DNA of 56,047 nucleotides, taken from Acidimicrobiia bacterium (GTDB lineage Bacteria; Acidobacteriota; Vicinamibacteria; Vicinamibacterales; UBA2999). The notes beneath the pieces are model-generated. The model did not search any database. It worked only from the letters and a program-made list of their open reading frames with translations, and was not told where the DNA came from. Location of the stretch: NCBI GenBank assembly GCA_016871375.1, contig VFYY01000004.1, forward strand, positions 1 through 56,047. Reading direction: 5' to 3'. Both the position numbers and the translations under genes were made by a program. This document shows, piece after piece, positions 16,399-43,436 of this stretch. Positions within the stretch are counted from its first letter, which is position 1. Each line of letters starts with the position of its first letter.

Positions 16399-16406
16399 CC
16401 GCGCCG

Positions 16407-27636: not shown

Positions 27637-27954
27637 ATGGGCGGCGCGCGACGGACGCCGCGCGCCGCCGGTCCGGCGTGTTATCGGGCGCAGGTGCAGC
27701 TCTTGCCGCAGTTGCACGTCTGGCCACAGCGGCATCCCGCACGGCGGCCCTGGGTCGAGTACGACTTTCCCCGGTTCCGCCTGGGAGCCGGCTACGGCGC
27801 CTATCAGTCACGCGGCGCGGTGTGGCAGCACAAGCCGTTCGTCACCGCGACCGTCAAGGTGCCGCCCGTCGGCAACGTGGAGCTCTGGCTGCAGCGGCTC
27901 CACGACAATCACCTCACCGCGCAGATCCGCTTCGCGAAAGTATTCGTGCACTAG
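27637..27954 (+). CDS. Hypothetical protein, probably a remnant of a beta-strand-rich protein
   Basis: The C-terminal half has coding-like codon bias (WVEYDF..FRLGAGYGAY...VELWLQ), but the N-terminal part is not protein-like. Confidence 0.4.
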   Translation: MGGARRTPRAAGPACYRAQVQLLPQLHVWPQRHPARRPWVEYDFPRFRLGAGYGAYQSRGAVWQHKPFVTATVKVPPVGNVELWLQRLHDNHLTAQIRFAKVFVH

Positions 27955-28066
27955 AGCGGTTTCTGAAACGTCGTAGTGTCCGGCTTGAGCCGGACCACGT
28001 CGATCGGCACCGCCGTGTGTGGTCCGGCTAAAGCCGGACACTACGAAGAAGTCGAAACCGCGCTAA
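27951..28066 (+). repeat. CTAG-bounded miniature element with REP doublet, copy 3 (116 bp)
   Basis: Same arms as the other copies. Both ends coincide with TAG stops of convergent ORFs. Confidence 0.92.
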
Positions 28067-29034
28067 GGCGACAGCGGCGCGAAGAGCTCCTCGATCGGGA
28101 CGACACGCGGCGCGAGGTGCTGCTCGAACAGGTACTGGGGCAGCGTCTCCAGCGAGCGCCGGTTACGTTCGACCCCGTACGGCCAGAAGTCCTCACCCAT
28201 GCTCCGGCGGGTCTCCTCCGTCTCGGCCACGATCCAGGGCAGCGTGATCTTCAGCGCGTCGATCTCGACGAGCTGCTCGTACGCCCACTGCTTCGCCCGC
28301 TCGAACGCGTCGAAGAGGCTCCTGGCCATCCACGGGTTCGCGTCGTACACGTCCCTGCGCACGACGATGACGTGCATGATCGGAAAGATGCCGGTCTTCT
28401 CGAAGTAGGTTTTTTCCACCCGCCGGTAGTCCTCGAACAACCGGCGCACCGGCGACCCGGGACGGGCGAGCGCCTGCGGCGCGTTGGGCGAGATGATGGC
28501 GTCGAGGGTCCCCTGCTCGAGCATCGGGCCCATGTCCTGCTCGAGGGGCATTCGTGTGAGCTTCACGCCGGGCAGGTCGAAGTCGATGCGCGTCGGCCGC
28601 TGCAGGCCGTCCTGCGTGCCGCTGAACCACTCGCTGGTCTCGGGGGCCACGCCGTACTCGTGCAGCAGCAGGCCGCGCGCGAATACCGCGGCCGTCATCG
28701 AGTACTCGGGAACCCCGATGCGCGTGCCGACGAGATCCGCCGGCTGACTGATCCCCGCGTGCCGGTTCACGTAGATGCAGGAGTGCCGGAAGAGCCGCGA
28801 GGGAAACACCGGGATGGCGATGAACGAGTCGTCGCCCCGCGCGCGGAGCATCGTGTAGTTGGAGAACGACAGCTCCGAGACGTCGAACGCCTTGTGGCGC
28901 AGCATGCGGAAGAACGTCTCGCTCGGCCTCGAGATGACCGGCGTCAGCTCGATGCCGTCCGGCACGATCGTCCGGTCGATCAGCGGGCGGACCCGGTCGT
29001 AATCCCAGAAGGCGATGGTCAGCCGCAGAGCCAT
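28063..29034 (-). CDS. 4,5-dihydroxyphthalate decarboxylase-like protein (SBP fold)
   Basis: YDRVRPL, FDVSELSFS.Y, IPVFPSRLFRHS, IGVPEY.MTA and GIFPIMH motifs. Confidence 0.88.
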   Translation of the reverse strand: MALRLTIAFWDYDRVRPLIDRTIVPDGIELTPVISRPSETFFRMLRHKAFDVSELSFSNYTMLRARGDDSFIAIPVFPSRLFRHSCIYVNRHAGISQPADLVGTRIGVPEYSMTAAVFARGLLLHEYGVAPETSEWFSGTQDGLQRPTRIDFDLPGVKLTRMPLEQDMGPMLEQGTLDAIISPNAPQALARPGSPVRRLFEDYRRVEKTYFEKTGIFPIMHVIVVRRDVYDANPWMARSLFDAFERAKQWAYEQLVEIDALKITLPWIVAETEETRRSMGEDFWPYGVERNRRSLETLPQYLFEQHLAPRVVPIEELFAPLSP

Positions 29035-29769
29035 CTATTCGACGCCGGCGTCGCGCAGCGTCCGCCGCGCGGCGGCAGTGGTGATGAAGCGGAGGAACGC
29101 CGAGGCGGCGACCGGCTCGCGCGCGGCGTGCATCACCACCGCGTCGTAGGTGGTGAAGTTCTGCAGCGGCGCAGGCAGCGGACCGGCATACTGCAGACCT
29201 GTTGCCCGGATGGCGTCTGACCTCGCGAGGAACGCGAGCTCGCTGCCGCGCGCGGCCGCGAGGCGCTCCATGACCGCCTCCCCATTGAGGACGCGGACGG
29301 TCTTCGCCTCGACGCGATCGGCGATGCCGAGCTGCGCGAGCAGCGTCTCGATGTACGTGCCGCTCGAGCCCTGGTTGTAGATGACCGCGTCCGCCGCGAG
29401 CAGTTCGCGGCGCAGCGCATCAGCGGACGAGACGTCGGGTGTGGCCGCGCCGGCGCGAACGACCACCGCCACGCCGACGCGGCCGACCGTCGTGCGCGAC
29501 GCGGCAGCGGCGCGGCGATCCGCGATCGCCTGGTCGACGACGGCCGCGGGCGCGATGAGGACGTCGGCGGCGTCGCCGGCCGCGAGCCGCGCCGTCAGTT
29601 GCGGCGCGTTGCCGATCTCGATGCGGACGACGTCACCGGTGTCACGCCGGTACTGGGCGGCGAGCTGCGTCACGCCCGCTTCCAGCGCGCCCGCGCTCAT
29701 CACGACGAGTTCCGCCGCGAAGAGCGTGGCCGCGCCGGCCGCGAGCACCACCGGCAGGACGAGTCTCAG
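29035..29769 (-). CDS. ModA-like extracellular substrate-binding protein (start uncertain: CTG 29769 or GTG 29751)
   Basis: Signal-like N-terminus; VMSAGA, PDVSS.DAL, GSSGTYI and GPLP.PLQ..T.Y motifs. Confidence 0.82.
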   Translation of the reverse strand: MRLVLPVVLAAGAATLFAAELVVMSAGALEAGVTQLAAQYRRDTGDVVRIEIGNAPQLTARLAAGDAADVLIAPAAVVDQAIADRRAAAASRTTVGRVGVAVVVRAGAATPDVSSADALRRELLAADAVIYNQGSSGTYIETLLAQLGIADRVEAKTVRVLNGEAVMERLAAARGSELAFLARSDAIRATGLQYAGPLPAPLQNFTTYDAVVMHAAREPVAASAFLRFITTAAARRTLRDAGVE

Positions 29770-32700
29770 AAATCGACCGTCAGGTTCCACCGGACGAAGC
29801 GCGGCGTGTAGATCGCGGTCGGGTTGTTCCACGTCCCGCCGTTGCCCGCGTTGTTGGCGCTGAACTGGTAGATGTTCTCGTACGTCGTCGTGTAGTTCGT
29901 GTTGAGCAGGTTGCCCAGGTCCACGCCCACGTCGAAGCGCCGCTGGCCCCACCGCAGGATCTTCGCGAAGCGCATGTCGATCTGCGTGCGCCGGTTGTCC
30001 GCGTACAGGCGGTGGTCGTTGTCCAGGATCTCGATGGTCGTGAAGCCGGTGGCGAGGCCGCCCGGGGGCAGCCGGCCCGCGGCGGCCTGGATCACCGAGT
30101 TCGGCACCTGCCACGTGGCGATGCGCTCGAGCGGCGCCTGCGAGCGCACGGTGGCGCTGACGAGCACGTCCACCTTCGGCACGGTGTAGGAGCCGAGCCC
30201 GCGGATCGTCGTCTGCCACGGATCGGCATCCAGGCAGTTGCGCAGGTCCTTGATCACGCCGCCGTTGGTCAGCGTCCGGCCGAGCGCGGGAATGAACGCA
30301 CCGCCGACGGCGACCACCGCGACGTCGCTGACGCGCGCGGTCTCGCAGGCATCCTCGACCGACCGGCCGGTCTGCGTGCCGAACTGCAGCGTCAGCCCCT
30401 GGCGGAGGCGCGCGTTGACCGTGAAGTCCACGCCGTGCCAGTACTGGGAGCGCGCCGGGCCGAAGTCCTCCTCGAAGGTGACGTAGTTCTGCGCGCCGCG
30501 CGAGGCGGCCGCCGCCGTGACCATCGACACCGTGATCGGGTACCCGCCGCCGCCGGGCAGCCGGTTATCGCGCGGCGCCGTGAGCGTGAACGGCTGGTAG
30601 TCCTCGGGCCCCCGCAGGCGGTTGTCGATGACCTTGTTGCCCAGGAACCAGCGGCGGTTGTAGGCGACCTCCGCCGACACGCGCGGGATCAGCTCCTGCT
30701 GCAGCGTGACACCCCACTGCCAGTCGGCCTGCCGCACGCCCCACCCGCGCAGCGTGTCCTGGTTGACCTGCTGGACGTTGCCGGAGACGGCGCCGAAGTT
30801 CAGCAGGTCGCCGGTCAGCGCCGCGCACTCTCCGTTGGCGGCGAAGTTCATGATGGTGCAGTCCACCACCTTGTTGCCGTTGGTGTCGTTCCAGTTCCGC
30901 GCCGCGGTCCGGACGATGCGGACCGCCGGGTTGTTGCTGGTGTACTCGCTGTCGTTGGTGGCGGCATCGAGGTACTTGCCCAGGTTGAACTTGAGCGCCG
31001 TGCGGCCGTCGCCGAACACGTCGTAGGCGGCGCCGAACCGCGGCGTGACGTCGTTGAATGCATCAACGCCGGGCGTGCGCTCGAACCTGATCGGCGCGGC
31101 GTTGAACGGCGAGGTTTTCGTCGTGCCGTTGCCCTCAGCCGGGCTGAAGCTCCACGCGCGGTCGTAGCGCAGCGCGCCCTGCAGCGTCAGCCGCCCCCGC
31201 GTCCACCGGTCCTGGACGTAAAAGGCAGAGGTCCCCGTGCGGTCCGCCGTATTCCAGTCCGGCAGCCGGAACGTGAACTGATTCGGCACGCCCTGGTTGA
31301 AGCGGTACTGCAGCCCGGCATCGGGAGTGGTGAAGAAGAAGTTCACGCGGATGTAGGCGCCCTGATAGCCGACCTTCAGATCGTGCGACCCGGTGACGTA
31401 GGAGGCCGAGGCGCGCCAGTTGTTCGGGTTGGCGTAGTTGGGGCTGATCGCCGGCACGCCGCGGTAGGTATAGTTCGCGCGCGGCGCGAACGGCAGCCCG
31501 GTCGCGGGATTGATCGCGGTGGACTGCTCGACGACGGAGATCAGATCGAACACGCCGTCCGGAGGCTGCCGGCCCGTCGTCCCGCCCTTGAACGAGAAGC
31601 GCGTGACGCCGGCCTCGAGGAGCAGCCGGTTCGTCAACGGCGCGCTCCAGGTCCCCTGCGTCACGTAGTAGGGCGTGTTGCCGAAGTAGTTCGGGTTCGC
31701 CTCGGGCGAGACCGTCGCCGTGCCGGCCGCGATCCAGTTGTCGCCGCGCGTGTTGCAGCCGTCGGTGTCCACCTTCAGCGGCGACCCTTCGCAGCGGCGC
31801 TGGTATTCCTGGTTGAACGAGACGCGGTTGCGCGGGGTGACCTGCATCGTGACGCGCGCGATGTACGTCTCGCGTCCCTGCAGCTGCCGTGCGTTCACGC
31901 TGGCGTCCCCCACCCAGTCCCACCGCGACGCGTCGGAGGTGTTCCGGTTCGCGACGACACCCTGGACCGACGACGCCGTATCGAGCTGGCGATAGCTGCC
32001 GAAGAACCAGATGCGATCGCGCTGAATCGGGCCGCCGTACGACGCGCTCCAGTCGTAGGAGCCGATGATCCCGGGAGGTTCCCTGAGACCCACCGCGCGC
32101 AGCTCGTCGGTCAGGTTGTTGCCGCGCGACCAGTCGCCGGCGTTGTTGACGAACGCCTGCCCGCGGAACGTGTTGCCGCCGGAGCGCGGCACCAGGTTCA
32201 TCACCGGGCCGCCGATGTCCGACTCGCCGAGGCCGCCGGCGACCGACACCGACACCTCGTCCACGTTGATCGAGTCGAGGATGTAGGTGGACACGCCGCC
32301 GCCGTTGAACGGGGCGGCCACGGTCATGCCGTTGATCGTCATGCGCCCTTCGTTGATCGGGCCGCCGCGCGCGGCGAAGAACGTCATCGTCGGCGAGGCG
32401 GCCAGCGCCCCGTCGTTGACGGTGAGGCCGGGCACCGCGTTGAGCAGCGTGCCGACCGAGCGGTTGCCGGGGATGGCGGCGACGACGTCGGCGCTCAGCA
32501 CCGTCTCGCGCTGCGTGGTCTGCACGTCGACGACCGGCGTCTCGCCGGTGACGGTGACCGTCTCCTCGAGCGTCCCGACGCTCATCTCGGCCGGAATCGC
32601 CAGCGTGGCGGTGCCACTGAGCTCGATGCCGTCGCGCCTGATCACCCTGAAGCCCGGGAGCGTGAAGGTCAGGGAGTAGGTGCCGGGGTTGAGGCCGGTG

Positions 32701-32903
32701 ATGCGGTACTGCCCCGTGCCATCGGTGATGGCCGTGCGTACCTTTTCAATCAAGGCGGGGCTGGCCGCCTCGACGGTGACACCGGGCAGCACGGCGCCCG
32801 ATTCGTCTCTCACGGCGCCCGTGAGAGTGCCTTGCGCAAACGCCAACGACGGCAGGAAGGCCGTGATCGCCAGGACCAGGACGGCCTTCGACACCACGCG
32901 CAT
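29766..32903 (-). CDS. TonB-dependent receptor (carboxypeptidase-regulatory-like N-domain)
   Basis: G.VRDESGAVLPGVTVEAASPALIEK, YVQDRW..GRLTL.GALRYD, PRFGAAYD and terminal Phe. Confidence 0.92.
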   Translation of the reverse strand: MRVVSKAVLVLAITAFLPSLAFAQGTLTGAVRDESGAVLPGVTVEAASPALIEKVRTAITDGTGQYRITGLNPGTYSLTFTLPGFRVIRRDGIELSGTATLAIPAEMSVGTLEETVTVTGETPVVDVQTTQRETVLSADVVAAIPGNRSVGTLLNAVPGLTVNDGALAASPTMTFFAARGGPINEGRMTINGMTVAAPFNGGGVSTYILDSINVDEVSVSVAGGLGESDIGGPVMNLVPRSGGNTFRGQAFVNNAGDWSRGNNLTDELRAVGLREPPGIIGSYDWSASYGGPIQRDRIWFFGSYRQLDTASSVQGVVANRNTSDASRWDWVGDASVNARQLQGRETYIARVTMQVTPRNRVSFNQEYQRRCEGSPLKVDTDGCNTRGDNWIAAGTATVSPEANPNYFGNTPYYVTQGTWSAPLTNRLLLEAGVTRFSFKGGTTGRQPPDGVFDLISVVEQSTAINPATGLPFAPRANYTYRGVPAISPNYANPNNWRASASYVTGSHDLKVGYQGAYIRVNFFFTTPDAGLQYRFNQGVPNQFTFRLPDWNTADRTGTSAFYVQDRWTRGRLTLQGALRYDRAWSFSPAEGNGTTKTSPFNAAPIRFERTPGVDAFNDVTPRFGAAYDVFGDGRTALKFNLGKYLDAATNDSEYTSNNPAVRIVRTAARNWNDTNGNKVVDCTIMNFAANGECAALTGDLLNFGAVSGNVQQVNQDTLRGWGVRQADWQWGVTLQQELIPRVSAEVAYNRRWFLGNKVIDNRLRGPEDYQPFTLTAPRDNRLPGGGGYPITVSMVTAAAASRGAQNYVTFEEDFGPARSQYWHGVDFTVNARLRQGLTLQFGTQTGRSVEDACETARVSDVAVVAVGGAFIPALGRTLTNGGVIKDLRNCLDADPWQTTIRGLGSYTVPKVDVLVSATVRSQAPLERIATWQVPNSVIQAAAGRLPPGGLATGFTTIEILDNDHRLYADNRRTQIDMRFAKILRWGQRRFDVGVDLGNLLNTNYTTTYENIYQFSANNAGNGGTWNNPTAIYTPRFVRWNLTVDF

Positions 32904-32951
32904 GGGGCCTCCTTCAGTACCGGGTTGAGGGGTACCACGCCGGCGGATGAC

Positions 32952-33329
32952 TTAACGGCCGTAGACGTTGATGGTCTTCCCGTCGGCGAGCACGACGTGT
33001 TCGAGCCGGATGATCTTCTGGCCGTCGGCGAACTGGTAGCCGGTGCCGGTGATCACGTCGCCCGGCTTCACCGTCGTCCTGGTCCAGCCGCTCGCTTCCA
33101 TCCGATTGAGCGCGGGACCGCCGATCAGCCACTGCTCCATCTGGCCGTTGTCGGCCTGGACCTGCAGCGTGATCATCGGGTGCGGGTTCACCCAGTTGAA
33201 GTCCTTCACCACGCCCTTCACGGTGACGAGCCGGGCGCGACTGACGGGCCACTGGTGGTGCGCGGACAGCGGGACTGCCGCGGCGATCAGCGTAAGGACA
33301 AGGAATACCGGAACAAGCACAGCCTTCAT
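32952..33329 (-). CDS. DUF6152-like secreted protein
   Basis: Signal peptide followed by AHH, G.V..F.W.NPH and KPGDVIT.TG. Confidence 0.82.
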   Translation of the reverse strand: MKAVLVPVFLVLTLIAAAVPLSAHHQWPVSRARLVTVKGVVKDFNWVNPHPMITLQVQADNGQMEQWLIGGPALNRMEASGWTRTTVKPGDVITGTGYQFADGQKIIRLEHVVLADGKTINVYGR

Positions 33330-33504
33330 CGTGGCGCTCCTTCCGGGGGTGATTCTAGGTCAGAACGCGCGTCGGCGGCTGAGATACTGCGGTGCCTCCC
33401 TTGCCCGTCTTCCGGAGATGAGTGAAGCGCCGGCCCCGAAGCCGCCGCCCGGAGAGTCGACCGCGTCCCTCATCGGCGGCGGATCGTGACGGTGACGCTG
33501 ACGT

Positions 33505-33801
33505 TCACGCTGCACGCGCAGCCATTACGGCCACTCCCTCGACGGCGGGGGGCGGAGTCCCGGCGAGCCACTCCAGGCGAACGGCGCAGTGCTCCGCGCG
33601 CGAGGTGTCACACGTGCAGTTGCCCTCCTCCCGGATGGCGCCGCACTGGTCGCACACGTATTCCGCGTGGCAGCGCACGAAGGTGGATGTCACGGTGTTG
33701 CCCCACATCCCGGTCTCGGTCGTGGGAACGGTCTCGGCGCCGGTGACGCGACGGCGCCACGCGTGACGGTGACGGCTCAGCAGATGCCGGCAGCAATCCA
33801 T
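33505..33801 (-). CDS. Small Cys/His-rich hypothetical protein (possible zinc-binding)
   Basis: GGAGG RBS; HRHAW, RCH...CDQCG, CTCD and HC. Confidence 0.65.
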   Translation of the reverse strand: MDCCRHLLSRHRHAWRRRVTGAETVPTTETGMWGNTVTSTFVRCHAEYVCDQCGAIREEGNCTCDTSRAEHCAVRLEWLAGTPPPAVEGVAVMAARAA

Positions 33802-33829
33802 GATGCACCTCCCGGCTTTCCGTGAACGG

Positions 33830-33845
33830 TGCAATTGCTGCTCCA
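33830..33845 (-). promoter_or_regulatory. Putative sigma-54 (-24/-12) promoter
   Basis: TGGAGCAGCAATTGCA gives GG-N10-GC, upstream of the ATG at 33801. Confidence 0.55.
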
Positions 33846-33966
33846 GCGGCGTCGATCGCTCGACGCCGCCCAACGGCGCAGCGCCTGCGTTCAGGCGCGG
33901 GATTGTTCCGCCGGCTGCGCAAGAATCCCCACGGTGGCGCGCTCGACGCCTCCAGCCGGACCCGGT

Positions 33967-34605
33967 TCAGCGCTGTTGGAGCAGCGCGTCCACGGCCAGC
34001 AGCTCGTCGCGGACGATCGTGTGTCCCATCCGCGGATAGATGCGCTCGTCCACCGCGGCACCCATGCGCCGGAACACCTCGGCGGACTCCTGCACGCGGT
34101 CGAGCGGAATGTGCGCGTCCACGTCGCTGCAGCCGATGAAGACCGGCGTGCCGTCGAACGCGCCCGCGTAGTCGCGCGCGGTTCCTGGCGGGCCGATCAG
34201 GCCGCCGCTGAAGGCGACGACCGCCGCGTAGCGCCGCGCGTGACGCGCGGCGAATTCCAGCGACAGGCACGCGCCCTGTGAGAACCCCATCACCGCCACA
34301 CGGCCGGGCGGAACGCCCTGGCGCTCGACGTCACCGACGAGCTCGTCGAGCCGGCGCAGCGCGGACGGGAGAAACGGCTCGTTCTGCTCCAACGGCGCAA
34401 GAAACGAGTAGGGATACCAGGCGCCGCCGCTCGCCTGCGGCGCGAGGTAGGCGATGTCGCGCGCGCTGAACTCTCCCGCCAGGCCGATGATGTCCTCCGC
34501 GGACGCGCCGCGCCCGTGGACGAGGATGGCGACGAGCCGTGCGTCCGCGAGCGGCGCTCCCGCATGGAGCACCGGTTGGTTGCCGTGCGGATGATTGGAA
34601 TCCAT
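33967..34605 (-). CDS. Phospholipase/carboxylesterase (MhqD-like)
   Basis: VHGRG, GFSQGA, D.HIP and GH catalytic motifs; next to a ring-cleaving dioxygenase. Confidence 0.9.
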   Translation of the reverse strand: MDSNHPHGNQPVLHAGAPLADARLVAILVHGRGASAEDIIGLAGEFSARDIAYLAPQASGGAWYPYSFLAPLEQNEPFLPSALRRLDELVGDVERQGVPPGRVAVMGFSQGACLSLEFAARHARRYAAVVAFSGGLIGPPGTARDYAGAFDGTPVFIGCSDVDAHIPLDRVQESAEVFRRMGAAVDERIYPRMGHTIVRDELLAVDALLQQR

Positions 34606-34608
34606 GGG

Positions 34609-35562
34609 TCAGTCGATCGGCTCGAGCCGTGAGGCGATCTGCGCGCGGTGCGTTTCGAGGAACGGCGGCAGCACGAGGTGCTCGCCGAGCGTGGCGGGAT
34701 CCTCGTCCACGCCGAATCCGGGGCCGTCGGTGGCGATCTCGAAGAGGACGCCGTTCGGCTCGCGCACGTACAGGCTGCGGAACCAGAACCGATCCACCTT
34801 GCCGCTGTTGGGGACGCCGAACTCGTTCAGCCGATCCGCCCACGCGTCGTAGTCGGCGTCCGGCGTCCGGAACGCGACGTGGTGGACGCCGCCCGCGCCC
34901 TGCCGCACATCGGGCAGATCCGGCTGCACGGCCACGTGCAGCTCGGCATGCGGGCCGCCGGCGGCGCCCATCTCGAACACGTGCACCGTGGCCGCCGGAT
35001 TGTCCGGATGCGGGGTGTCGCGCACCAGGCGCATGTTGAACACCCGCGTCAGGAGGATGTCGGTCGGGTTCAGCGTCGGCACGCTGATGACAATCGGGCC
35101 GAGGCCGCGGATCTGAAACTCCGGCGGAACGGGACTGCGCTCCCACGGCGCCGGCGCATCGCCGCGGCCGCCGTCGTCGACGAGCGCGAGCCGCTGCCCT
35201 TCCGGATCCTCGAACCGCAGGTTCAGCCGGCCGTCGCGCTCGAAGACGTCGCCGTGGCTCACCCCGAGCTCGTCGAAGCGGCGCACCCACCAGTCGATCG
35301 CACGGGCGCCGTTCACGCGCAGGCAGGTGCGGACGATGCTGCGGGTGCCGCGGCGCTCGCGGGGAACGGGCCAGTCGAAGAACGTCAGGTCCGTGCCCGG
35401 CGTGCCCTTCGCATCCGCGTAAAACAGGTGATACGCGCTCACATCGTCCTGGTTCACGGAACGCTTGACGAGGCGCATGCCGAGCGTCTGCGTGTAGAAC
35501 CGGTGGTTCTCGCGGATGGCGCCGGAAATTGCGGTCAGATGGTGGATGCCGGTCAGATCCAT
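34609..35562 (-). CDS. Ring-cleaving dioxygenase, VOC/glyoxalase family (MhqO/PcpA-like)
   Basis: [33 protein letters not shown] and [26 protein letters not shown] motifs. Confidence 0.93.
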
Positions 35563-35597: not shown

Positions 35598-36182
35598 ATG
35601 AGCCGCACGTTCGTTCTTTCGGTTGCGATGCTGGTGCTGTCGGCAAGCGCGTTCGCCCAGCAGGTCACCGGCACACCGCCGCCGCTCGAGCCGGGCGCGT
35701 CGCAGGCCGACGTGGACAAGGCGCTCCTCGCGGCGCCGGCCAACCTGCGTACGCAGGCCACCGTGGTCAAGTGGAAGCCCGACTTCACCTACGACACGCT
35801 GCGGAAGGGCACCAACCGCCTGGTGTGCTACGACCGGTCGGGGCAGCCGGCACAGCCGGCGTATTCGATCGAGTGCACGAGCCTCGGCAACCTCGAGCGC
35901 GTCGCGCAGAACATGAGATTCGAGGTGGAGACCGACCGCACGAAGCGGCAGGCGGCGCTCGACGCCGCGGAGAAGGACGGCAGCCGCGTGAAGCCCGAGT
36001 TCGGATCGGTGTTCTACAACCTGTCCGGACCGGACCAGGCGGCAGCGCGCACGCACACGACGGTCGCAGTGCCGGGCGCTACGGCGCAGTCGCTCGGACT
36101 GCCCGACACGGCCAAAATGGGCGGGGCATGGATCATGAACGCGGGCACGACGACCGCGCACATCATGATTCCCGGTCATTGA
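35598..36182 (+). CDS. Secreted hypothetical protein
   Basis: GGAGG RBS, signal peptide, ALLAAP..L...ATV and WIMNAGT..AHIM.P. Confidence 0.78.
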   Translation: MSRTFVLSVAMLVLSASAFAQQVTGTPPPLEPGASQADVDKALLAAPANLRTQATVVKWKPDFTYDTLRKGTNRLVCYDRSGQPAQPAYSIECTSLGNLERVAQNMRFEVETDRTKRQAALDAAEKDGSRVKPEFGSVFYNLSGPDQAAARTHTTVAVPGATAQSLGLPDTAKMGGAWIMNAGTTTAHIMIPGH

Positions 36183-36508
36183 TGAAACATCTCATCCTCG
36201 GGTTCCTGGCCGCCGTCTCGCTGTCGGCCGGCCAGGACGCCCGGACGTTCACCGGGACGATCACCGACAGCATGTGCGCCGACGGCAACCATGCGCCCAT
36301 GCGCATGGGGCCGACCGCCGCGGAGTGCACCACCGCGTGCGTCATGGCGCACGGCGCGCTCTACGTGCTGTACGACGGCGAGAACGCCTACGACCTCAGC
36401 GATCAGAAGACGCCCGAGCAGTTCGCCGGGCAGCCGGTGCGCGTCGTCGGCACCCTCGACGTGAAGACGAAGACCATCCGCGTCGAGTCGATCACAGCCC
36501 GGAAGTGA
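36182..36508 (+). CDS. Small secreted Cys/His-containing OB-fold-like protein (DUF5818-like)
   Basis: Signal peptide; G.ITDSMC...H...C...CV..HG and V.V.GTL. Confidence 0.72.
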
Positions 36509-37304
36509 GCCGGTAGACGCCGTACTCCGGGTTGACCGCGTAGCCTTCGGCGACGAGCGCGCGGTTGCCGCGGCCGGCGTCCCGACGCGAGAGGCCCGTC
36601 ACCCGCGCCAGCTCGCCGGGGACGGTCATGCCGGCGCACGACAGAAAGCCGCGCGCGATCTCGCGCAGCGCCACCTCGCGCGAGACGCGCGTGCGAAGCG
36701 CATCGGGAAACCGCCCGACAGCCAGCGTCCAGAGATAGGTGAGCTTCGGCAGGTACAACACCTGGCTGGGCACCACGAGCATCGCCGCCTGGAGCTCGTC
36801 GAGCGCCCTGGTGAACGCCGCCCGGTCCTTCACGCCGGAGTCGTCCCGGAGGTCCGAGGTGGCCATCTCCCACTCGTGGCGCAGGACCTTCAGGATCTTC
36901 TGCGCGTTGCGGCTCAACCGCCGGCCCTCGTCGGCGCGCCGTATGCCCCACACGGCGTGGAAGTACGGAATCATGCGCGGCGCCACGAACGTCGCCTTGC
37001 CGCGCGCGAACTTCGCGTAGTACACGCGGCCGCGCCGCACGAGCTCGTCCTTCAGCCGCCACGTCAGCGACGATTCCGGATCCTTCTGCACGTTGCGCGG
37101 CATCACCGCGTCGCGGCGGCCGCAGACGGCGACATAGAGGGACGGCCCCGGCCGGCGGCCGTCGGTCAGGCACGCCGCGAAGCCGACACGCGCGATGAAG
37201 CCCTCCGCGGCGATCGGGCTGTCGATCTGGCGCGGCCCCTCACGATGCCAGTGGTAGTCGCGATACTCCTCGATATCCGCGGGAAGCTCCGGCCTGCGTC
37301 GCAT
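36492..37304 (-). CDS. AlkZ/YcaQ-like winged-helix protein
   Basis: [15 protein letters not shown]...G.VYYAK..RGKATF and ALDELQ..MLV. Confidence 0.65.
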
Positions 37305-37307
37305 CGC

Positions 37308-37595
37308 TCACTCGGTCCGATCCCTCCGCCGGCGGCGCTTTCTGGCGGATCCGCCGAAGATCCCGAGATCGATCAGGACGGCGAGGACCACGATCGCCAG
37401 ATAGATCCCTTCCACCGACCCGCGAGCGTTCATCGCCAACGCGTAGGCGAGCGTCGTCAGCGGCAGGAACAGGAATCCAAGCAACGGCCAGAGCGTCGTC
37501 TGGTAGGCACGGCCGATGTAGTCGCTGACGATCACCACCAGGATGATGGCGAATCGCGGCGCGAGGAGGGCGAGGCAACCGACGAGGAACGGCAT
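37308..37595 (-). CDS. Small membrane protein
   Basis: Three hydrophobic segments and PLLGFLFLP.TTLAY. Confidence 0.75.
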   Translation of the reverse strand: MPFLVGCLALLAPRFAIILVVIVSDYIGRAYQTTLWPLLGFLFLPLTTLAYALAMNARGSVEGIYLAIVVLAVLIDLGIFGGSARKRRRRRDRTE

Positions 37596-37605
37596 GACGA
37601 CGCCC

Positions 37606-38397
37606 TCAGCGCGTCAGCACGAGATAGGCGCCCCAGGTCACGGCCGCGCTGCCGGCGAGGCGGCCAAACAGTGCGCCGCCGCGCAGGAGCTTCTCGAGCA
37701 GCACGAATCCCGCCAGCGCGGCGACCCACCACAGATTCATGACGCCGACGACGAAGAGGAGCGTCATCAGGAGCCAGCAGCACCCGACGCAGAACATCCC
37801 GTGACGGAAGCCCAGCCCGAATCCGCCTCCGGCACCTTCCGCCCAGTACCGTGAGAGGAACCCGAACGGCGACTGGCAGTGCGTCAGGCACATCTGCTTC
37901 AGAGGCAGCCACTGGTAGAGTCCGGCGACGATCAGCACCACGCCGGACACCCCGGCCGCACCGATGCGCATGTCGGCCGAGAGGAGCGCCGCGCGGTGCA
38001 GGACGAGTTGCGTGCTCGCGGCGGCCACGCTGAACGCCGTCCAGGCGGCCAGGTACCCCGTGACGAATGCGATCGAGGCGATTCGCGCCTGTGGATCGTT
38101 GCGCCGCCGATAGACGCCGAGCACGAGCAGAATCACCGGCGCAGCCGACGGCAGCATCATCGCCACCATCATGACCGTCCACATCGTCAACAGGCCGGCC
38201 CAGTCGGCTATCCCCCACGCGCGCATGTCGGCCATTCCCATGGCGGCATGCATCCGGGCGTCCGCCGCCATGGCGTCCATGCCGGCGGCGGCCCGGGCCA
38301 GATACACCCACGCGAGCGCCGTCATCGCGGCAAGACCGAGGCCCACCAGCAGCCGGTCCCGCCGGACGACGTGATCGAGCGTCGCGACCGCGTCCAT
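37606..38397 (-). CDS. DUF2182 family metal-binding membrane protein
   Basis: MWTVMMVAMMLPS, YQW.PLK..CL.HC.SP and CVGCCW.LM..LFV.GVMN. Confidence 0.92.
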   Translation of the reverse strand: MDAVATLDHVVRRDRLLVGLGLAAMTALAWVYLARAAAGMDAMAADARMHAAMGMADMRAWGIADWAGLLTMWTVMMVAMMLPSAAPVILLVLGVYRRRNDPQARIASIAFVTGYLAAWTAFSVAAASTQLVLHRAALLSADMRIGAAGVSGVVLIVAGLYQWLPLKQMCLTHCQSPFGFLSRYWAEGAGGGFGLGFRHGMFCVGCCWLLMTLLFVVGVMNLWWVAALAGFVLLEKLLRGGALFGRLAGSAAVTWGAYLVLTR

Positions 38398-38398
38398 C

Positions 38399-39031
38399 CT
38401 ATTCGTTGGTCCAGTTCACTTCCGCCGCTGCCGCGTATTTGCCGGGCCATTCGAGCCGGAAGTCTCCGTGCTGCGCCCGCATGGTCTCCGTCGTGGCGAT
38501 CTTCGCGTCGTTCCAGAAGAAGCCGCCCTGCGGGTAGACGATGTGCACTTCTTTCGCCTGACCGGACATGACGTCTCGAATCGGCGTCAACTGCAGCTCC
38601 ACGGCGCCCGCCACCCGCACGAGGGACTGCTCGCCGGCGGCTTTGATCTCCACGGGCTTGCGAATCGGGCCTTCGAACTTCGCGATGGTGCCCGCCAGCG
38701 CCTCCCACGGCATGCCGCCGAGCTGTCCGGACAGCACGGACGCGAACGCGTTCACTTGCGCGTCGCTCGCCTTGTCGTCGATGAACAACACGACGTGGCC
38801 GTGTCCTTCATGGATGGCCTTCGGGTACTTCGCGGCGACCACCGCGCGAACCCCCTTCAGAGACACGTCGCCGACGCGGCCGTCCGTGACGTCGAAGCCG
38901 ACGATGAACTCGCACTTGCCCTCGTTTGGAAACCCCGCGAACTGGCAGTTGCACCCATGCTGACAGTTGCAGGCTTCGATGCTCTCGGCCTTCACCCGGT
39001 AACCGGTCTTTCCAGCTGGCGCTGCACTCAT
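38399..39031 (-). CDS. DUF1326 family protein
   Basis: EACNC...CNC...C motif; usual partner of DUF2182. Confidence 0.9.
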   Translation of the reverse strand: MSAAPAGKTGYRVKAESIEACNCQHGCNCQFAGFPNEGKCEFIVGFDVTDGRVGDVSLKGVRAVVAAKYPKAIHEGHGHVVLFIDDKASDAQVNAFASVLSGQLGGMPWEALAGTIAKFEGPIRKPVEIKAAGEQSLVRVAGAVELQLTPIRDVMSGQAKEVHIVYPQGGFFWNDAKIATTETMRAQHGDFRLEWPGKYAAAAEVNWTNE

Positions 39032-39116
39032 CGCATGTTCTCCATCTTCAGGCCCTCGGACAGCCCTTGTCATAGCGGTGTGCCCCGTCGGATCGCCGCG
39101 GCGAATTGTAATCCGG

Positions 39117-40949
39117 TCAGGCGACCGACGACGCGTGCGCGCGGATGGCGGACAGGAAGATGGGGCCGAGGTCCTCGGCCTTGCGCGCGCCGATCCCCTT
39201 GACCGACCGGAGCGCGTCGAGGGAGCTCGGCCGCAGACGGGCCATCTCGCGCAGCGTGGCGTCGTGAAAGATGACGTACGGCGGCACGCCACGCTGGCGC
39301 GCGGTCTCGAGCCGGAGGGCGCGAAGCCGTTCGAACAGCGCGCGATCCACGTCTTCCCACGATTGCGCCTCGACGCGCGACCGTGCCCGCGGCGCGTCCC
39401 GGCGCACGGCGCGCTGCCGCGCGAGCGTGAGGCCGGGACAGCTCGTCTCGTCCCGCAGCAGCGTCAGCCCCTTCGCCGTCAGCGCCAGCACGGCGTACGG
39501 ATCGTCGCTCGTCCTCAGCAGGCCGAGCGCGGTGAGCTGCTGGATGTATCCGCGGAGCTCGGACGCCGCAGCCTGGCGCAACAGCCCGAATGTGCTCAGC
39601 CGGTCGTGCGCCCTGGCGAGCACCTGCTCGCTCGCGTGGCCGCGGAGCACGTTCACCACGTGCAGCGCGCCGAACCGTTGTCCGACCCGCGCCACGCACG
39701 AGAGGATTTGCCGCGCGACGACGACCGGCTCCGCCACGGCCTCGAGCTCGTCGAGGCAGTAGTCGCAGGCGCCGCAGCTGCCGGGCGCGTAGCCGTCGCC
39801 GAAGTACTCCGCGAGATGGCGGTGGCGGCAGCCGACGCCCGCCGCGTAGCGTTCCATCTGCCGCAGCAGCGCGAGGTTCGCGTCCGTCAGCTCACCGTTG
39901 GTCTGCAGCATGACGCGCCAGCGCATGAAGTCGGCGGCTGAATACATCAGCAGGCACTCGGCCTCGAGACCGTCCCGCCCCGCGCGCCCCGACTCCTGCT
40001 GATAGTGCTCGACCGATCGGGGTGCGCCCGCATGGACCACGAAGCGCACGTTCGAGCGGTCGATGCCCATGCCGAAGGCGACGGTGGCGACGATGACGTC
40101 GATGCGCTCGGCGATGAAGTCGTCCTGGTTCCTGCTCCGCTCGGCCTCCCCGAGGCCGGCGTGGTACGGAAGCGCGGGAATGCCTTCGCCGGTCAGCCAC
40201 GCCGCCAGTGCGTCAACCTCGCGCCGCGCCGTGCAGTAGATGATCCCGGCCTCCCGAGGGTGCCGCGCCAGGGTGTCGAGGAGCTGCTGCTTCAGCCGGG
40301 CACGCGGCAGCACGCGGTAGACGAGGTTCGGCCTATCGAACGATCCGACGAGCTCGACGGGATCCACCAGGCCGAGCTGCGTGGCAATGTCGTGCCGCAC
40401 CCTCGCGGTGGCCGTGGCCGTGTAGGCGTGGACGCTGACCCCGGGCAGCCGTTGCCGGAGCTGCGCCAACTGACGGTACTCCGGCCTGAAGTCATGGCCC
40501 CACTGGCTGATGCAGTGCGCTTCGTCAACCGCCAGGAAGCTGACGTCACACGCCGCGAGCAGCGCCAGAAAGCTCTCGCTGCCCTCACCCACCAGCCGCT
40601 CAGGAGAGACGTACAACAAACGGTAGCGCCCCTCGCGCAGACCGGCGACCGCCCGCGCTTTCTCCGCTGCCGTGAGCGAGCTGTTGTACAGGACCGCTGG
40701 CACGCCGTTGCCCACCAGCGCGTCCACCTGGTCTTTCATGAGCGAGATCAGCGGCGATACCACGACCGCGAGTCCGGGCCGCACGAGGGCCGGCGCCTGG
40801 AAGCAGAGCGACTTGCCGCCGCCGGTGGGCAGCACGACCAGCGAGTCGCGCCGGGCGAGCACGGCCTCCATGGCCTGGCGTTGAAGGGGCCGGAACGAGG
40901 AGTACCCCCAGTACCGTGCGAGGACGTCTTCGAGCGGTGAGTCAGGCAA
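39117..40949 (-). CDS. recQ: ATP-dependent DNA helicase RecQ
   Basis: PTGGGKS, DEAHCISQWGHDFRPEY, TATA, QESGRAGRDG, RQC cysteines and HRDC domain. Confidence 0.96.
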   Translation of the reverse strand: MPDSPLEDVLARYWGYSSFRPLQRQAMEAVLARRDSLVVLPTGGGKSLCFQAPALVRPGLAVVVSPLISLMKDQVDALVGNGVPAVLYNSSLTAAEKARAVAGLREGRYRLLYVSPERLVGEGSESFLALLAACDVSFLAVDEAHCISQWGHDFRPEYRQLAQLRQRLPGVSVHAYTATATARVRHDIATQLGLVDPVELVGSFDRPNLVYRVLPRARLKQQLLDTLARHPREAGIIYCTARREVDALAAWLTGEGIPALPYHAGLGEAERSRNQDDFIAERIDVIVATVAFGMGIDRSNVRFVVHAGAPRSVEHYQQESGRAGRDGLEAECLLMYSAADFMRWRVMLQTNGELTDANLALLRQMERYAAGVGCRHRHLAEYFGDGYAPGSCGACDYCLDELEAVAEPVVVARQILSCVARVGQRFGALHVVNVLRGHASEQVLARAHDRLSTFGLLRQAAASELRGYIQQLTALGLLRTSDDPYAVLALTAKGLTLLRDETSCPGLTLARQRAVRRDAPRARSRVEAQSWEDVDRALFERLRALRLETARQRGVPPYVIFHDATLREMARLRPSSLDALRSVKGIGARKAEDLGPIFLSAIRAHASSVA

Positions 40950-41095
40950 CGGTCTTCATGATTGCACGGCTGCCGGCATCGCCGCGCGCATGAGCGCATG
41001 GCTTTAGGGTCTTCTCAGGATCGCCGTAAGGACAGTTCAGGAATCGCGGCCCGCGGGCGCCGAACGGGCAGGGGCCGAGCGGGAGCGCGACGGGG

Positions 41096-41854
41096 CTATG
41101 AGCGGGTCCGGGTGCGGACGGTGCGCTTTTTCCTGCCCGCGACGAGCTGCCACGCGTCGCGGATATGAATTCGCAGCGCATCGTCGCGAATCGCGCCGAG
41201 CATGATCCCCACCCAGCCGCTGGCTCCCATGTAGGGCGGCTTGAAATAGGTGCGCGGCGCGTCCTCGATCAGGAACGGCTGCAGGCCGTTGGGCACCGGG
41301 ACCCAGAGCGCGAGCCGGCCGTCATCATGATGATGGTCGGCGAACATCGCGAACACCCCTTTGTCCTTCTCGACGAAGAAGGTCGGCGTGCCGTGGGACA
41401 GCTTCTCGGTCACGCTCGGCATTGCTGCGCACAGACGACGCACGCGCTCGAGCTGCGCCTGACGGCCCTTCGAGCGCGCGCCCGCTCCCTTCTCGCGGCC
41501 GGTGAGGACGTCGGCGCGAAACCTGGCGATCCGTCCGATCAGGGTCGTGGGAACCGGTTTCGACAGCGGGAACCGGATTGAGCTCTTGCTGCGCTCGTAG
41601 GGCGCGAGCTCGCGCCTGAAGGCCGCGACGAGCGCGTCGTTCACCGGATACAGCGCGTAATGCGCTTTCCACCCCGCGAAATAGAGCACCGGCACGCCGT
41701 CCAGCGTGTACGACGGAATCTGATACGAGAGCCGCTCTTCCGCGCGCGGCACGGCCTTGCGGATCGCGCGGCGCACGCCTTCGAGGATCCCGCGGACGTC
41801 CCTGGGCTTCGCCGCGATATACGCGTCCACGGATGTGAACCGCGTCTTTGCCAT
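41096..41854 (-). CDS. DUF1801 (YdhG-like) fused to an MmcQ/YjbR-like domain
   Basis: SVDAYIAA...E.LSYQIP.Y...IRFPL.KPVP, followed by E.LSHGTPTFFV...YF.PPY.G..GWVG. Confidence 0.82.
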   Translation of the reverse strand: MAKTRFTSVDAYIAAKPRDVRGILEGVRRAIRKAVPRAEERLSYQIPSYTLDGVPVLYFAGWKAHYALYPVNDALVAAFRRELAPYERSKSSIRFPLSKPVPTTLIGRIARFRADVLTGREKGAGARSKGRQAQLERVRRLCAAMPSVTEKLSHGTPTFFVEKDKGVFAMFADHHHDDGRLALWVPVPNGLQPFLIEDAPRTYFKPPYMGASGWVGIMLGAIRDDALRIHIRDAWQLVAGRKKRTVRTRTRS

Positions 41855-42023
41855 CAGAACCCCGCCATGTTCAGCACGCGGCCGGCGATCCTTGCGCTTC
41901 CCTGGGCGAAGGCCGAGGCGGCGCGTGAACCATCGCACGCATTCTGGCATGGGATCGCTCGACGCGAAGCGGGCCGGGCGATATCATGGTCCCGCAGATG
42001 GACCGAGAGGAGATCCCGTCCAC

Positions 42024-42938
42024 ATGAGAGGCATCATCCGACTCGCGGCCGCGCTTTCGTGGATTGCGCTCACCGTACCTGTCGCCCGCGCCCAGGGCGA
42101 TGGGCAGGCGCAGCTCGCACCGGGGGAATGGCAGCGTCTGCACGCAATGGGACTGCGCTACACGAGCGCGGACGATCTGTATCAGGCGCTCGAGCAGTCG
42201 GCGCGCGGGGGCCGCGTGTCGCCGCCGTTCAGCGGACTGCCCGACTGGACCGGGCTGTGGACGGCCGCTGGCGGCGGGACGTTCTTCGGCGCGGCCCCTG
42301 GAGGCGCGGTGCCAAAGCTCACGGCCACCGCCGCCGCGGCGCTGAAGGCCGGGAATGAGCTCGCTGCGCAGGGCATCCAGTACGACGAGAATCTGAGCGA
42401 GTGCGGACCCCCGGGATTCCCGCGATGGCTCGTGATCCCGTTCCTGCGCGAGTTCATCGTCAGGCCGGAGCAGACGTGGCTCTCGTCGGAGACCGTGAAC
42501 AACGTCCGCCGGATCTACACCGACGGCCGCGGCCATCCGTCGGCAGCCGACGCCTTTCCCCTCTACTACGGCGACTCGATCGGGTTCTGGGACGGTCAGA
42601 AGCTCGTGATCCACACCGCCCAGTTGATGGAGCGCTCGATGGGCCGCGGGCAACCCACCCAGAGCGAGCAGATGGAAACCGTCGAAGTCTGGGAGAGACT
42701 CGACGCGCGTACCATCAAGGCCGACGCGTGGATCTACGACCCCGCCACCTATACCGAGCCGTGGTTCCTCCAGCGGCGCTACCGGCAGGTCGAGAACCCC
42801 GACAAGAGCCTGCGGATGAACTACTGGCATTGCGGCGAGAACCCGAACAACGACGTCTACAAGACCCCTGAGGGCGGGACGCAATATCGAAACTTCACGT
42901 TCACGACCACTGACGACGCAAAGGAGCAGGGGAAATGA
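42024..42938 (+). CDS. Secreted hypothetical protein (family usually adjacent to DUF6152)
   Basis: Signal peptide; LPDWTG.W, C.PPGFPRW, RRIYTDGR.H and GDSIGFWDG..LVIHT. Confidence 0.82.
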   Translation: MRGIIRLAAALSWIALTVPVARAQGDGQAQLAPGEWQRLHAMGLRYTSADDLYQALEQSARGGRVSPPFSGLPDWTGLWTAAGGGTFFGAAPGGAVPKLTATAAAALKAGNELAAQGIQYDENLSECGPPGFPRWLVIPFLREFIVRPEQTWLSSETVNNVRRIYTDGRGHPSAADAFPLYYGDSIGFWDGQKLVIHTAQLMERSMGRGQPTQSEQMETVEVWERLDARTIKADAWIYDPATYTEPWFLQRRYRQVENPDKSLRMNYWHCGENPNNDVYKTPEGGTQYRNFTFTTTDDAKEQGK

Positions 42939-43324
42939 AGACATCACTGCCGCCCGCGATCTGCGCCGCGCTGCTCGTGGCGGTCCCTGCCGCCGGGCAT
43001 CACTCCGGCACGATGTTCGACGATGACAAGACCGTCACCGTCGAGGGCGTCGTGAAGGAATTCCAGTACACGAACCCGCATTCGTGGCTGCTGGTCGATG
43101 TCCCGGGTGCCGACGGCAAAGTCACGACCTGGGGCTTCGAGGCGGAGGGACCGACGACGCTGATGATGCGGCAGGTACGACGCAGCGACTTCACGCCGGG
43201 GACCAGGGTGACGATCACCGGCCATCCCATGAAGGACGGCCGGCCGGCCGCTGCCTGGGTGAAGGCGGTGCGCGCCGACGGAAAGCAGTTCTACCCGCGC
43301 GGGCAGGCCGCGGCCGAGCCCTAG
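42935..43324 (+). CDS. DUF6152-like secreted protein
   Basis: Signal peptide, HHS..MFD, EG.V.EFQY.NPHSW; ATGA coupling. Confidence 0.85.
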   Translation: MKTSLPPAICAALLVAVPAAGHHSGTMFDDDKTVTVEGVVKEFQYTNPHSWLLVDVPGADGKVTTWGFEAEGPTTLMMRQVRRSDFTPGTRVTITGHPMKDGRPAAAWVKAVRADGKQFYPRGQAAAEP

Positions 43325-43436
43325 AGCGGTTTCTGAAACGTCGTAGTGTCCGGCTTTAGCCGGACCACACACGGCGGTGCCGATCAACTTGGTCCGGCTG
43401 AAGCCGGACACTACGAAGAAGTCGAAACCGCGCCAG
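43321..43436 (+). repeat. CTAG-bounded miniature element with REP doublet, copy 4 (116 bp, core inverted)
   Basis: Arms as in the 27951 copy, but spacer 43367-43390 is the reverse complement of that copy's spacer (2 mismatches). Confidence 0.92.

Follow-up and report, generated by a model that had tools for sequence, protein, structure and literature searches.

A host REP pair forms the core of a 110-bp miniature transposon family in an uncultured acidobacterium

The four related repeats in the window (the whole 56,047-nt stretch of DNA analysed) are members of a family of about 150 copies of a 110-bp miniature transposon that carries a pair of host REP sequences as its core. The genome searched (G000) is a 4.2-Mb Vicinamibacterales MAG, 91.7% complete, with a GC content of 69%. 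The original prediction had placed the copies at 124-239, 16121-16192, 27951-28066 and 43321-43436 and had described them as composites, with arms bearing terminal inverted repeats and TA/CTAG ends around a GTAG REP doublet; both the positions and the composite nature are confirmed. The element is probably a lineage-specific, non-autonomous terminal-inverted-repeat element (MITE) of IS630/Tc1-like type, with secondary variants derived from its palindrome. The relevant features of the window are as follows:

1-124, minus strand: terminal 124 nt of an IS630-family IS (end ...GGGGTAC; transposase gene start on the minus strand); the window start is the tail of contig C151
127-236, minus strand: full-length MITE, common spacer orientation (spacer 170-193, ACGTT allele); listed as C4:129-234-
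585-607, plus strand: solo GTAG REP (GTAGTGTCCGGCTTCAGCCGGAC), without MITE arms
3888-3910, minus strand: solo GTAG REP, without MITE arms, in the orientation opposite to 585-607
16124-16189, plus strand: 66-bp derivative with a single palindrome, composed of the arms and one long REP palindrome (AAA loop); hairpin -27.2 kcal/mol, z -7.7
27954-28063, plus strand: full-length MITE, common spacer orientation (spacer 27997-28020); one long hairpin, -47.8 kcal/mol, z -10.3
43324-43433, plus strand: full-length MITE, spacer inverted (43367-43390); hairpin -45.4 kcal/mol, z -10.3

The element proper measures 110 bp in the three full-length copies, and the predicted CTAG boundary is split, the C belonging to the flank and the G to the element, with a duplicated TA flanking the element proper. 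The unit is short and non-coding; its ends read G[A/C]GCGGTTTC, and its terminal inverted repeats (GAGCGGTTTC versus GCGCGGTTTC) agree at 9 of 10 positions. The arms enclose two inverted GTAG REPs that are separated by a spacer and fold as a hairpin; perfect inverted REP arms of 26-28 bp enclose a segment of 20-24 nt. None of 200 shuffles folded as well as the hairpins of the two plus-strand full-length copies (z about -10). The short copy contains a single long palindrome, TCGTAGTGTCCGGCT AA AGCCGGACACTACGA. The spacer at 43367-43390 is indeed reverse-complemented relative to the arms when compared with the spacers of the other two full-length window copies, but it is the commoner AAGTT allele that is reversed, not the ACGT(T/C) allele that those two copies carry.

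Copies 27954-28063 and 16124-16189 keep TA on both sides (27952-27953 and 28064-28065; 16122-16123 and 16190-16191). One side has decayed in the others, to CA (43434-43435) opposite the TA at 43322-43323, and to GA (237-238) opposite the TA at 125-126. This last TA is common to the MITE and to the end of the adjoining IS630-family IS; window nucleotides 1-127 are identical to the last 127 nt of C151, which encodes a 364-aa ORF with DDE_3 (89 bits) and HTH domains. Two window copies abut gene ends: the stop of ORF 14982-16124 is the TAG at 16122-16124, overlapping the single-palindrome copy, and the minus-strand TAG stop of ORF 28063-29034 occupies 28063-28065, at the edge of the full-length copy 27954-28063.

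Across G000, the 19-nt left arm (up to two mismatches) occurs 151 times (86+65), with no occurrence of the reversed control, and an exact 17-mer of each arm occurs 118 and 125 times, numbers well above what chance would give. The arms recur as a unit genome-wide, as expected from the original prediction. The 96 full-length copies comprise 88 in the common orientation, seven with an inverted spacer and one degenerate; together with four single-palindrome copies these represent the three structural states proposed from the window, and there are at least 11 REP-less shells besides. Among 400 further genomes from the order the left arm turned up in 18, never more than once in each. An autonomous element with the ends of the MITE was found neither in G000 nor in these 400 genomes (the arm is expanded in none of them), and no unpaired arm flanking a longer insert was found in G000. 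Likewise, the suggestion of an IS630 with ends TAGAGCGGTTTC found no counterpart, the two DDE_3 (IS630-family) genes having GTACCCC/GTCCCC ends. The MAG, at 91.7% completeness, does not contain the interiors of multi-copy IS, and an autonomous partner could therefore be missing from it.

Insertion targets conform to YTAR, mostly CTAG, with the TA duplicated. Among the 96 full-length copies the flanks are CTA..TAG in 47, CTA..TAA in 10 and TTA..TAG in four; the pairing of a left TTAG with a right CTAG, and of a left CTAG with a right CTAA, is as expected for a duplication of 2 bp, not 4 bp. Four complete insertions lie within REP hairpin loops (C98:11240, C25:5831, C3:4557 and C153:980), where the uninterrupted loop sequence is known from hundreds of copies; all four read GGC(N)-TA-[element]-TA-(N)GCC, with one TA decayed in three. 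Both sets of flanks fit IS630-type transposition, as had been anticipated, and CTAG/TA is likewise the target of the IS630-family IS that adjoins the window copy at 124. CTAG is rare in this GC-rich genome and often overlaps TAG stop codons. The terminal TA plus G forms the TAG stop of a GC3-rich ORF (at least 100 codons) in 61 of 96 copies, compared with 276 of 637 CTAG sites away from the element. Since the element begins with G, insertion restores the stop, and most copies thus sit harmlessly at gene ends, which would account for the tolerance of the element by its host. Nested insertions record past movement only, and the 382 kb that could be aligned to other assemblies showed neither an element-sized indel nor an insertion polymorphism.

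The REP of the core also flanks a RAYT gene on contig C59, as had been predicted. There, a 152-aa ORF matches NF047646 at 82.6 bits (cut-off 80), its translation has HLH and a YIVENP motif, and it sits between a five-copy array and two more copies of this REP (copies at 16298, 16338-16520 and 17068). Separate mobility of the core as a REPIN was not borne out: a REP doublet with this spacer was never found outside the arms, every spacer-bearing cluster also having an outer arm, and the doublet therefore does not behave as an independent REPIN. The replicating unit is larger than the doublet, the TA duplication lying outside the arms.

The target pattern suggests that the MITE inserts at YTAR and duplicates the central TA as in IS630/Tc1-mariner-type DDE transposition, a transposase presumably acting in trans on the non-autonomous element. 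Because its interior is a host GTAG REP doublet, the whole element folds as a single long hairpin, whose apical loop is the 24-nt spacer. Template switching or recombination between the perfect REP arms may then have flipped the loop, central deletions may have left a single long palindrome, the REP-less shells may have lost theirs altogether, and one arm may have been homogenised on the other. The inverted-spacer form would have arisen once or a few times from the modal copy and then spread by transposition to at least seven loci.

The variants themselves provide several points of evidence. The seven inverted copies are dispersed over seven loci, and all belong to one haplotype class held by 42 of the 88 common copies (P = 0.0056), which favours a common origin over locus-by-locus flipping, a result also compatible with a single master copy whose spacer flipped more than once while it was being copied. 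The four single-palindrome copies have AAA loops in two cases and TTT in two, implying at least two central-deletion events. Shells with identical breakpoints read L-GTA-R at five loci and L-TAC-R at four (three simple, one compound); with identical breakpoints at several loci and just 1 nt of microhomology, simple slippage explains them poorly. Pointing to arm homogenisation, complementary non-modal loop pairs (TGTA/TACA in four copies, TTGA/TCAA in four, GTTA/TAAC in one) occur on different spacer haplotypes, and a single R..R chimera was found, on C195.

The identity of the enzyme may be questioned, as a HUH enzyme with identical target and right-end cleavage sites could yield the same apparent 2-bp duplication, and the TA flanks are thus not proof of a DDE mechanism. 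The 110-bp unit might then be an extended REPIN moved by RAYT (a HUH single-strand transposase) alone, its TAs being the target cleavage site and the identical cleavage site of the element. We consider this unlikely, although the RAYT gene beside the same REP, the failure to find a DDE transposase with matching ends in G000, the unexpanded arm in 400 genomes and the folding of the element as a single, REPIN-like hairpin are all in its favour, as are three copies of related TA-GAGCGGCTTC units around REP pairs in another genus (G017). Compensated arm changes are also described for REPINs (PMC3116915), and REP dimers within longer palindromes for other phyla (PMC3733652). Arguing for IS630-like movement instead are the TA on each side of the element at a CTAG/YTAR target, which is the IS630 pattern and one followed by the IS630-family IS of the same genome, and the shells (at least 11), whose ends and TA flanks are unchanged at different loci; had they moved in that form, the GTAG REP would be dispensable. 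To our knowledge, REPINs are not reported to make target duplications, which also counts against movement by RAYT alone. Alternatively, two enzymes may have been at work, a DDE transposase moving the shell and RAYT making strand-specific cuts in the REP doublet, which would be excised and at times put back in either orientation to give the inverted, single-palindrome and REP-less states. The mirror-image shells recommend this idea, each corresponding to retention of 5'-GTA and removal of the rest of the palindrome on one or the other strand, as do the co-occurrence of RAYT and REP and the asymmetric and central REPIN excisions seen in Pseudomonas reads (PMC3116915; PMC3337134). It is nonetheless quite improbable: the confinement of the doublet to the arms means that re-insertion elsewhere is not seen, the single haplotype class is what one event followed by spread would give, and the shells may simply have transposed after single deletions.

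The original prediction had also envisaged a core that is invertible or excisable at a given locus, and nothing shows that it is so now. An active switch, flipped in situ by REP-arm recombination or a site-specific recombinase so that populations carry mixed orientations, is very improbable, even though perfect inverted arms around a short segment and the presence of both orientations in one genome are what such a switch would have. The haplotype of the inverted copies speaks against it, as does the re-sampling of elements in other metagenome assemblies: 49 of 52 re-sampled element occurrences had the same structural signature, and the remaining three differences were effects of contig ends or IS junctions, the 56 metagenome loci recovered not including the seven inverted loci. 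Moreover, none of the 10 scanned ORFs flanking window copies matched a recombinase family, and the segment, just 24 nt long, has no recognisable promoter or ORF and no Rfam match. Rather than a working switch, the flipped and shortened cores look like by-products of the palindrome that have become fixed. That they are assembly artefacts, with an inverted repeat mis-traversed in a de Bruijn graph, is barely credible. The element is a high-copy palindrome, inside which Logan contigs (k=31) do break; but 13 of 20 contig ends at IS junctions extend into the IS for exactly 127 nt, and the tail of C151 equals the head of C4 over 127 nt. Together these point to a final k of 127, which exceeds the length of the element with its TAs (114 bp). 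The variant states also recur at several loci (seven inverted, four single-palindrome), the single-palindrome locus C153:7481 and many full-length loci are reproduced in other assemblies (the former in L139), and one further inverted copy exists in another metagenome assembly (L107).

Set beside the known systems, the MITE retained as the preferred reading has features of several. Bacterial MITEs derived from IS630/Tc1-mariner elements are likewise small and non-coding; they too have terminal inverted repeats, duplicate TA at a CTAG-type target, lie beside genes and form subtypes by end type and internal deletion; the present family differs in having a host RAYT-associated REP doublet as its interior, where those have an IS remnant, and in that no IS with matching ends was found in the genome or the 400 relatives searched. 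RUP of Streptococcus pneumoniae and NEMIS/Correia of Neisseria show TA duplication, mixed end types and internal-deletion forms. We know of no cognate transposase for Correia elements, and none was found for the 110-bp MITE. RUP and NEMIS/Correia are named as bacterial MITEs by Di Nocera et al. (2013; PMC3733652), who also describe REP dimers "inserted within long palindromic sequences" in Anabaena variabilis, Thermomicrobium roseum and Halothiobacillus neapolitanus. There, as here, a conserved outer palindrome regularly encloses a REP dimer; that paper gives consensus sequences only, whereas the present family includes REP-less shells and an inverted-spacer subtype, its TA duplication and choice of target are documented, and the host is an acidobacterium. 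The REPIN/RAYT system, as described by Bertels and Rainey (2011; PMC3116915, PMC3337134), also has two inverted GTAG REPs around a spacer, a long hairpin, frequent compensatory changes in its arms (PMC3116915) and the same REP beside a RAYT gene. Long palindromic REP singlets (a-palindrome-a^c) come from central excision of REPINs (PMC3337134), and the single palindromes found here match them. Unlike in REPINs, the doublet lies within 19-nt asymmetric arms bearing 10-bp terminal inverted repeats, and the amplified unit includes these arms and is flanked by duplicated TA, the doublet not occurring alone. Template switching between inverted repeats leads to arm homogenisation and spacer inversion (PMC8604942; for E. 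coli quasipalindromes, PMC7202029); it is a general replication error and not a feature peculiar to this element, and for this family a candidate mechanism. Central-excision singlets, compensatory arm changes and template-switch spacer inversion are thus each already in print.

Current ideas on the movement and decay of REPs and REPINs still come largely by inference from Pseudomonas and E. coli. The uncultured acidobacterium studied here has a REP doublet that was amplified about 100-fold as part of a different kind of mobile element, and the asymmetric arms supply an external reference in each copy against which inversion, homogenisation, central deletion and palindrome loss can be read and counted directly. 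The family can thus serve as a natural data set on palindrome instability, and on RAYT cleavage as well should the mirror-image footprints prove enzymatic. If two enzymes were in fact involved, RAYT cleavage products would here be preserved inside a second transposon, the first natural record of the kind. Stop-codon-overlapping CTAG sites, in turn, explain the pile-up of such elements at gene ends in GC-rich genomes. A separate observation on insertion sites is that REP hairpin loops (TTAG/CTAA) are landing sites for at least three mobile elements in G000.

All four copies of the element placed in the window by the original prediction are present there, and a repeat search of the window returned the same families, with solo REPs besides:

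124-239, reverse-oriented: element copy in the common arrangement
585-607: solo REP
3888-3910: solo REP
16121-16192: single-palindrome copy, arms around one long palindrome
27951-28066: full-length copy in the common arrangement, with both arms and both REP hairpins
43321-43436: full-length copy with inverted spacer, sharing both arms and both REP hairpins with 27951-28066

The 24-nt spacers of the copies at 27951-28066 and 43321-43436 are reverse complements relative to the arms. The inversion proposed for the 43321 copy was confirmed, with one departure in detail from the original prediction: turned back, its spacer (...GATCAACTT) gives the AAGTT allele, and not ACGT(T/C), which the other two spacers in the window carry.

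The host genome (G000), in which the window is contig C4, comprises 4.22 Mb in 295 contigs, with 68.9% GC and 91.7% completeness. A fragment of its RpoB shares 70-76% identity with MAGs labelled Vicinamibacterales/Acidobacteriota. The window stretch was found at 0.96-0.98 of sampled words in lake-water metagenome runs, and Logan contigs of lake-water metagenomes match the window without differences. Copies were counted throughout G000 by a census of four short signature motifs.

Signature census of G000 (L, left arm; R, right arm; S, spacer; H, REP half)
L H S+ H R: 82
L H S- H R: 6, plus 1 within a compound
R..R chimera: 1
Solo REP halves: about 95
Compound or truncated forms: many

When a more stringent pattern for full-length copies was applied, 96 were found, made up of 88 common, 7 inverted and 1 with a degenerate spacer. 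Together with the left arm, which occurs 151 times in G000 at up to 2 mismatches (reversed control, 0), these bear out the claim that the arms recur as a unit genome-wide. Among 400 further genomes from the order, the left arm turned up in 18, never more than once in each, and a search of 30 relatives did not find the full element, while the REP part alone was common to them; the expansion is therefore specific to the G000 lineage. Matches to TAGMGCGGYTTC in relatives (11 in 5 genomes) were fewer than in the reversed control, and an exact-pattern scan of genome contigs gave 0 matches in a set from which the window's own genome is possibly absent. A related unit, TA-GAGCGGCTTC ... two different REPs ... 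GCCGCAC-TA, is present three times in one genome of another genus (G017); at two loci of this genome (L088, L090) a further insert of ~45 nt, itself palindromic, sits in the second REP hairpin loop of the related composite. No Rfam family was found in the window at the gathering threshold.

The flanks of the 96 full-length copies read CTA..TAG in 47, CTA..TAA in 10 and TTA..TAG in 4, with degenerate forms scattered among the copies. The pairing of left TTAG with right CTAG, and of left CTAG with right CTAA, indicates that a target of the form N-TA-N had its TA (2 bp) duplicated, the adjoining G and C being the element's own bases; a 4-bp duplication would give identical tetranucleotides on both sides, unlike the mixed flanks seen. 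The TA duplication is proved directly by four complete copies that lie within REP hairpin loops of known intact sequence (GGCTAAAGCC / GGCTCTAGCC / GCCTTTAGGC):

C98:11240: insertion in REP loop, GGC-TA-[element]-TA-AAGCC
C25:5831, C3:4557 and C153:980: insertions in REP loops, same reading with one TA degenerated

From the flanks and these loop insertions, the element proper is thus 110 bp long, with ends GAGCGGTTTC and GCGCGGTTTC. Nested insertions of this kind, with later deletion between the direct copies, explain the partial tandems (L H L H S H R; L H S H R H R). The genome contains just 887 CTAG sites. In 61 of the 96 copies, TA and the element's first G together serve, on one or the other side, as TAG stop for a GC3-rich ORF of 100 codons or more (on both sides in 11 of 96), as against stop overlap at 276 of 637 CTAG sites away from the element. 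In the window, two ORFs close at a copy:

14982-16124: ORF (OmdA domain), closed by the element-overlapping TAG at 16122-16124
28063-29034, minus strand: ORF closed by 28063-28065

IS630 elements characteristically duplicate TA at CTAG. G000 holds two DDE_3/HTH transposase genes (contigs C29 and C151). An IS of this type has one end at position 124 of the window, where it shares its TA with the MITE that starts at 127, and its other end adjoins another MITE on C184. The ends of these ISs (GTACCCC..., GTCCCC...) have no likeness to those of the MITE, and no long insert flanked by one or both arms was found among the unpaired arms examined in G000. Therefore a cognate transposase was not found in G000, and the expected IS630 with matching ends did not materialize. 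An IS5-like IS (ends CACTAC...) was rejected as parent, since its ends do not resemble those of the element, and since the bases that follow TA differ between its flanks (CTAA/CTAG/TTAG), which implies a 3-4-bp duplication. The ends of an IS5-like multi-copy IS both start CACTACTTTGTCAGATTC and lie at CTAA/TTAG/CTAG sites (20 junctions at G000 contig ends, e.g., C24:31240, C48:24703, C139:110 and C246:4234), most of them within the loops of REP hairpins or at the ends of MITEs; here too the base following TA is variable, implying a 3-4-bp duplication, and the interior of this IS is absent from the MAG. A separate 1.45-kb IS (C192:2723-4171, L166; and L150:2698) encodes a 451-aa DDE_Tnp_1 protein, has ends TAATGCC.../...GGCATTA and is inserted at REP hairpin tips. 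The 10-nt hairpin tip (GGCTNNNGCC) is tandemly duplicated at 12 loci (e.g., C10:36790, C36:26102, C72:18862), and in 10 of the 12 the two units are separated by a single additional A or T; these could be excision footprints of the 1.45-kb IS.

The REP itself has a partner. G000 has four Y1_Tnp matches, among them a 152-aa ORF on C59 with HLH and YIVENP motifs that passes the NCBIfam REP-associated tyrosine transposase model (82.6 bits, cut-off 80). This RAYT gene sits between a five-copy tandem array GTAGTGTCCGGCTT(C/T)AGCCGGAC and two more inverted copies. The flanking REP is the core REP, an arrangement that the original prediction had suggested looking for, and thus the MITE core is a doublet of the C59 RAYT's REP. 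In the census, a doublet with the element's spacer was never found without an arm, so the amplified unit is the whole MITE. That a DDE transposase moves the 110-bp unit while the RAYT cuts the embedded doublet strand-specifically seems to us unlikely. Head-to-tail arrays of 5-7 copies of this REP with a 37-39-nt period occur at C59:16338-16520, in G017 (L095) and in G001 (L096), and one directly adjoins the RAYT gene.

Folding of the whole element gives a single long hairpin whose loop is the spacer (-47.8 and -45.4 kcal/mol, z about -10). The stems of the two REPs supply 8-nt direct repeats, and each of the four single-palindrome copies is a deletion between these; since the loop is AAA in two (C4:16126, C153:7481) and TTT in two (C14:11803, C28:26927), at least two deletion events took place. 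REP-less shells occur as L-GTA-R (5 loci) and its mirror image L-TAC-R (3 loci and one in a compound), both of which keep 3 nt of the REP termini and are therefore deletion products, not virgin targets; in others the arms are fused via GTCG (3 loci and one variant). Arm homogenisation is seen in the one R..R chimera, and the left end is changed to GCGCGG in several copies. Complementary two-sided loop changes (TGTA/TACA in 4, TTGA/TCAA in 4, GTTA/TAAC in 1) sit on different spacer haplotypes, and 28 copies have the loop changed on one side only.

The inverted spacers (7 of 96 copies) lie at seven different loci, each with its own flanks: C4:43324, C8:32056, C40:11368, C42:25490, C117:11448, C134:10730 and C2:33613. 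When un-flipped, all seven fall into haplotype class A, T, G (spacer positions 2, 5 and 21), which is held by 42 of the 88 common copies. Independent flips of extant copies would give this with P = 0.0056 in the three-site class test; the single-site test at spacer position 2 was not significant (P = 0.086). These data favor either a single origin or flips from a single master copy, with spread thereafter. A scan of metagenome contigs listed at least 56 loci with 65 arm-bearing clusters, the seven inverted loci not being among them; 8 clusters had no G000 counterpart, 5 matched by one flank only with no element nearby (contig ends), and 52 were comparable. Among these listed clusters the signature was the same in 49 of 52, and the three that differed (L100, L131, L150) reflect one contig-end truncation and two IS-junction effects. 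Several listed loci showed the same state in two or three assemblies, one more inverted copy (L107) occupies a locus that the MAG lacks, and no element-sized indel separated G000 from the metagenome contigs over 382 kb aligned. The "invertible/excisable core" of the original prediction, given the single haplotype class and this constancy, is better called a set of fixed, palindrome-driven derivatives. Misassembly, also raised for the variants, would here be a de Bruijn graph artefact. Logan contigs over window 27700-43700 end ~25 nt inside each element, and none bridges. G000 contig ends overlap by exactly 127 nt (the C151 tail is the C4 head, and at one IS 13 of 20 contig ends reach 127 nt into the IS); the final k-mer therefore exceeded the element length, which argues against an artefact. 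The sole indel of at least 20 bp in the 382 kb was a length difference of ~80 bp between L133 and C55:9746-9770.

As to known systems, the element shares terminal repeats, TA duplication and CTAG target with IS630-type MITEs, but no cognate IS was found in G000, and it shares doublet, hairpin and RAYT link with REPINs, although the doublet is not the replicating unit. The composite nature proposed for it holds to that extent. Bertels and Rainey (PMC3337134) trace "long palindromic REP singlets" to central excision in REPINs, and the single-palindrome form matches these. Arm homogenisation and spacer inversion are both reported outcomes of template switching at inverted repeats (PMC8604942), and compensatory changes are reported for REPINs (PMC3116915). 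Brief mention of REP dimers enclosed by longer palindromes in three other species (PMC3733652) gives the composite some precedent. New here are the TA duplication, the shells without REP and the inverted-spacer subtype. Elsewhere in the window, a perfect inverted repeat of 32 nt around a 15-nt loop (24385-24463) is unrelated to the REP family, and an 88-nt direct repeat (8339-8426 and 8714-8801; 70% identity, 375 nt apart) within an ORF region looks like duplicated coding domains.
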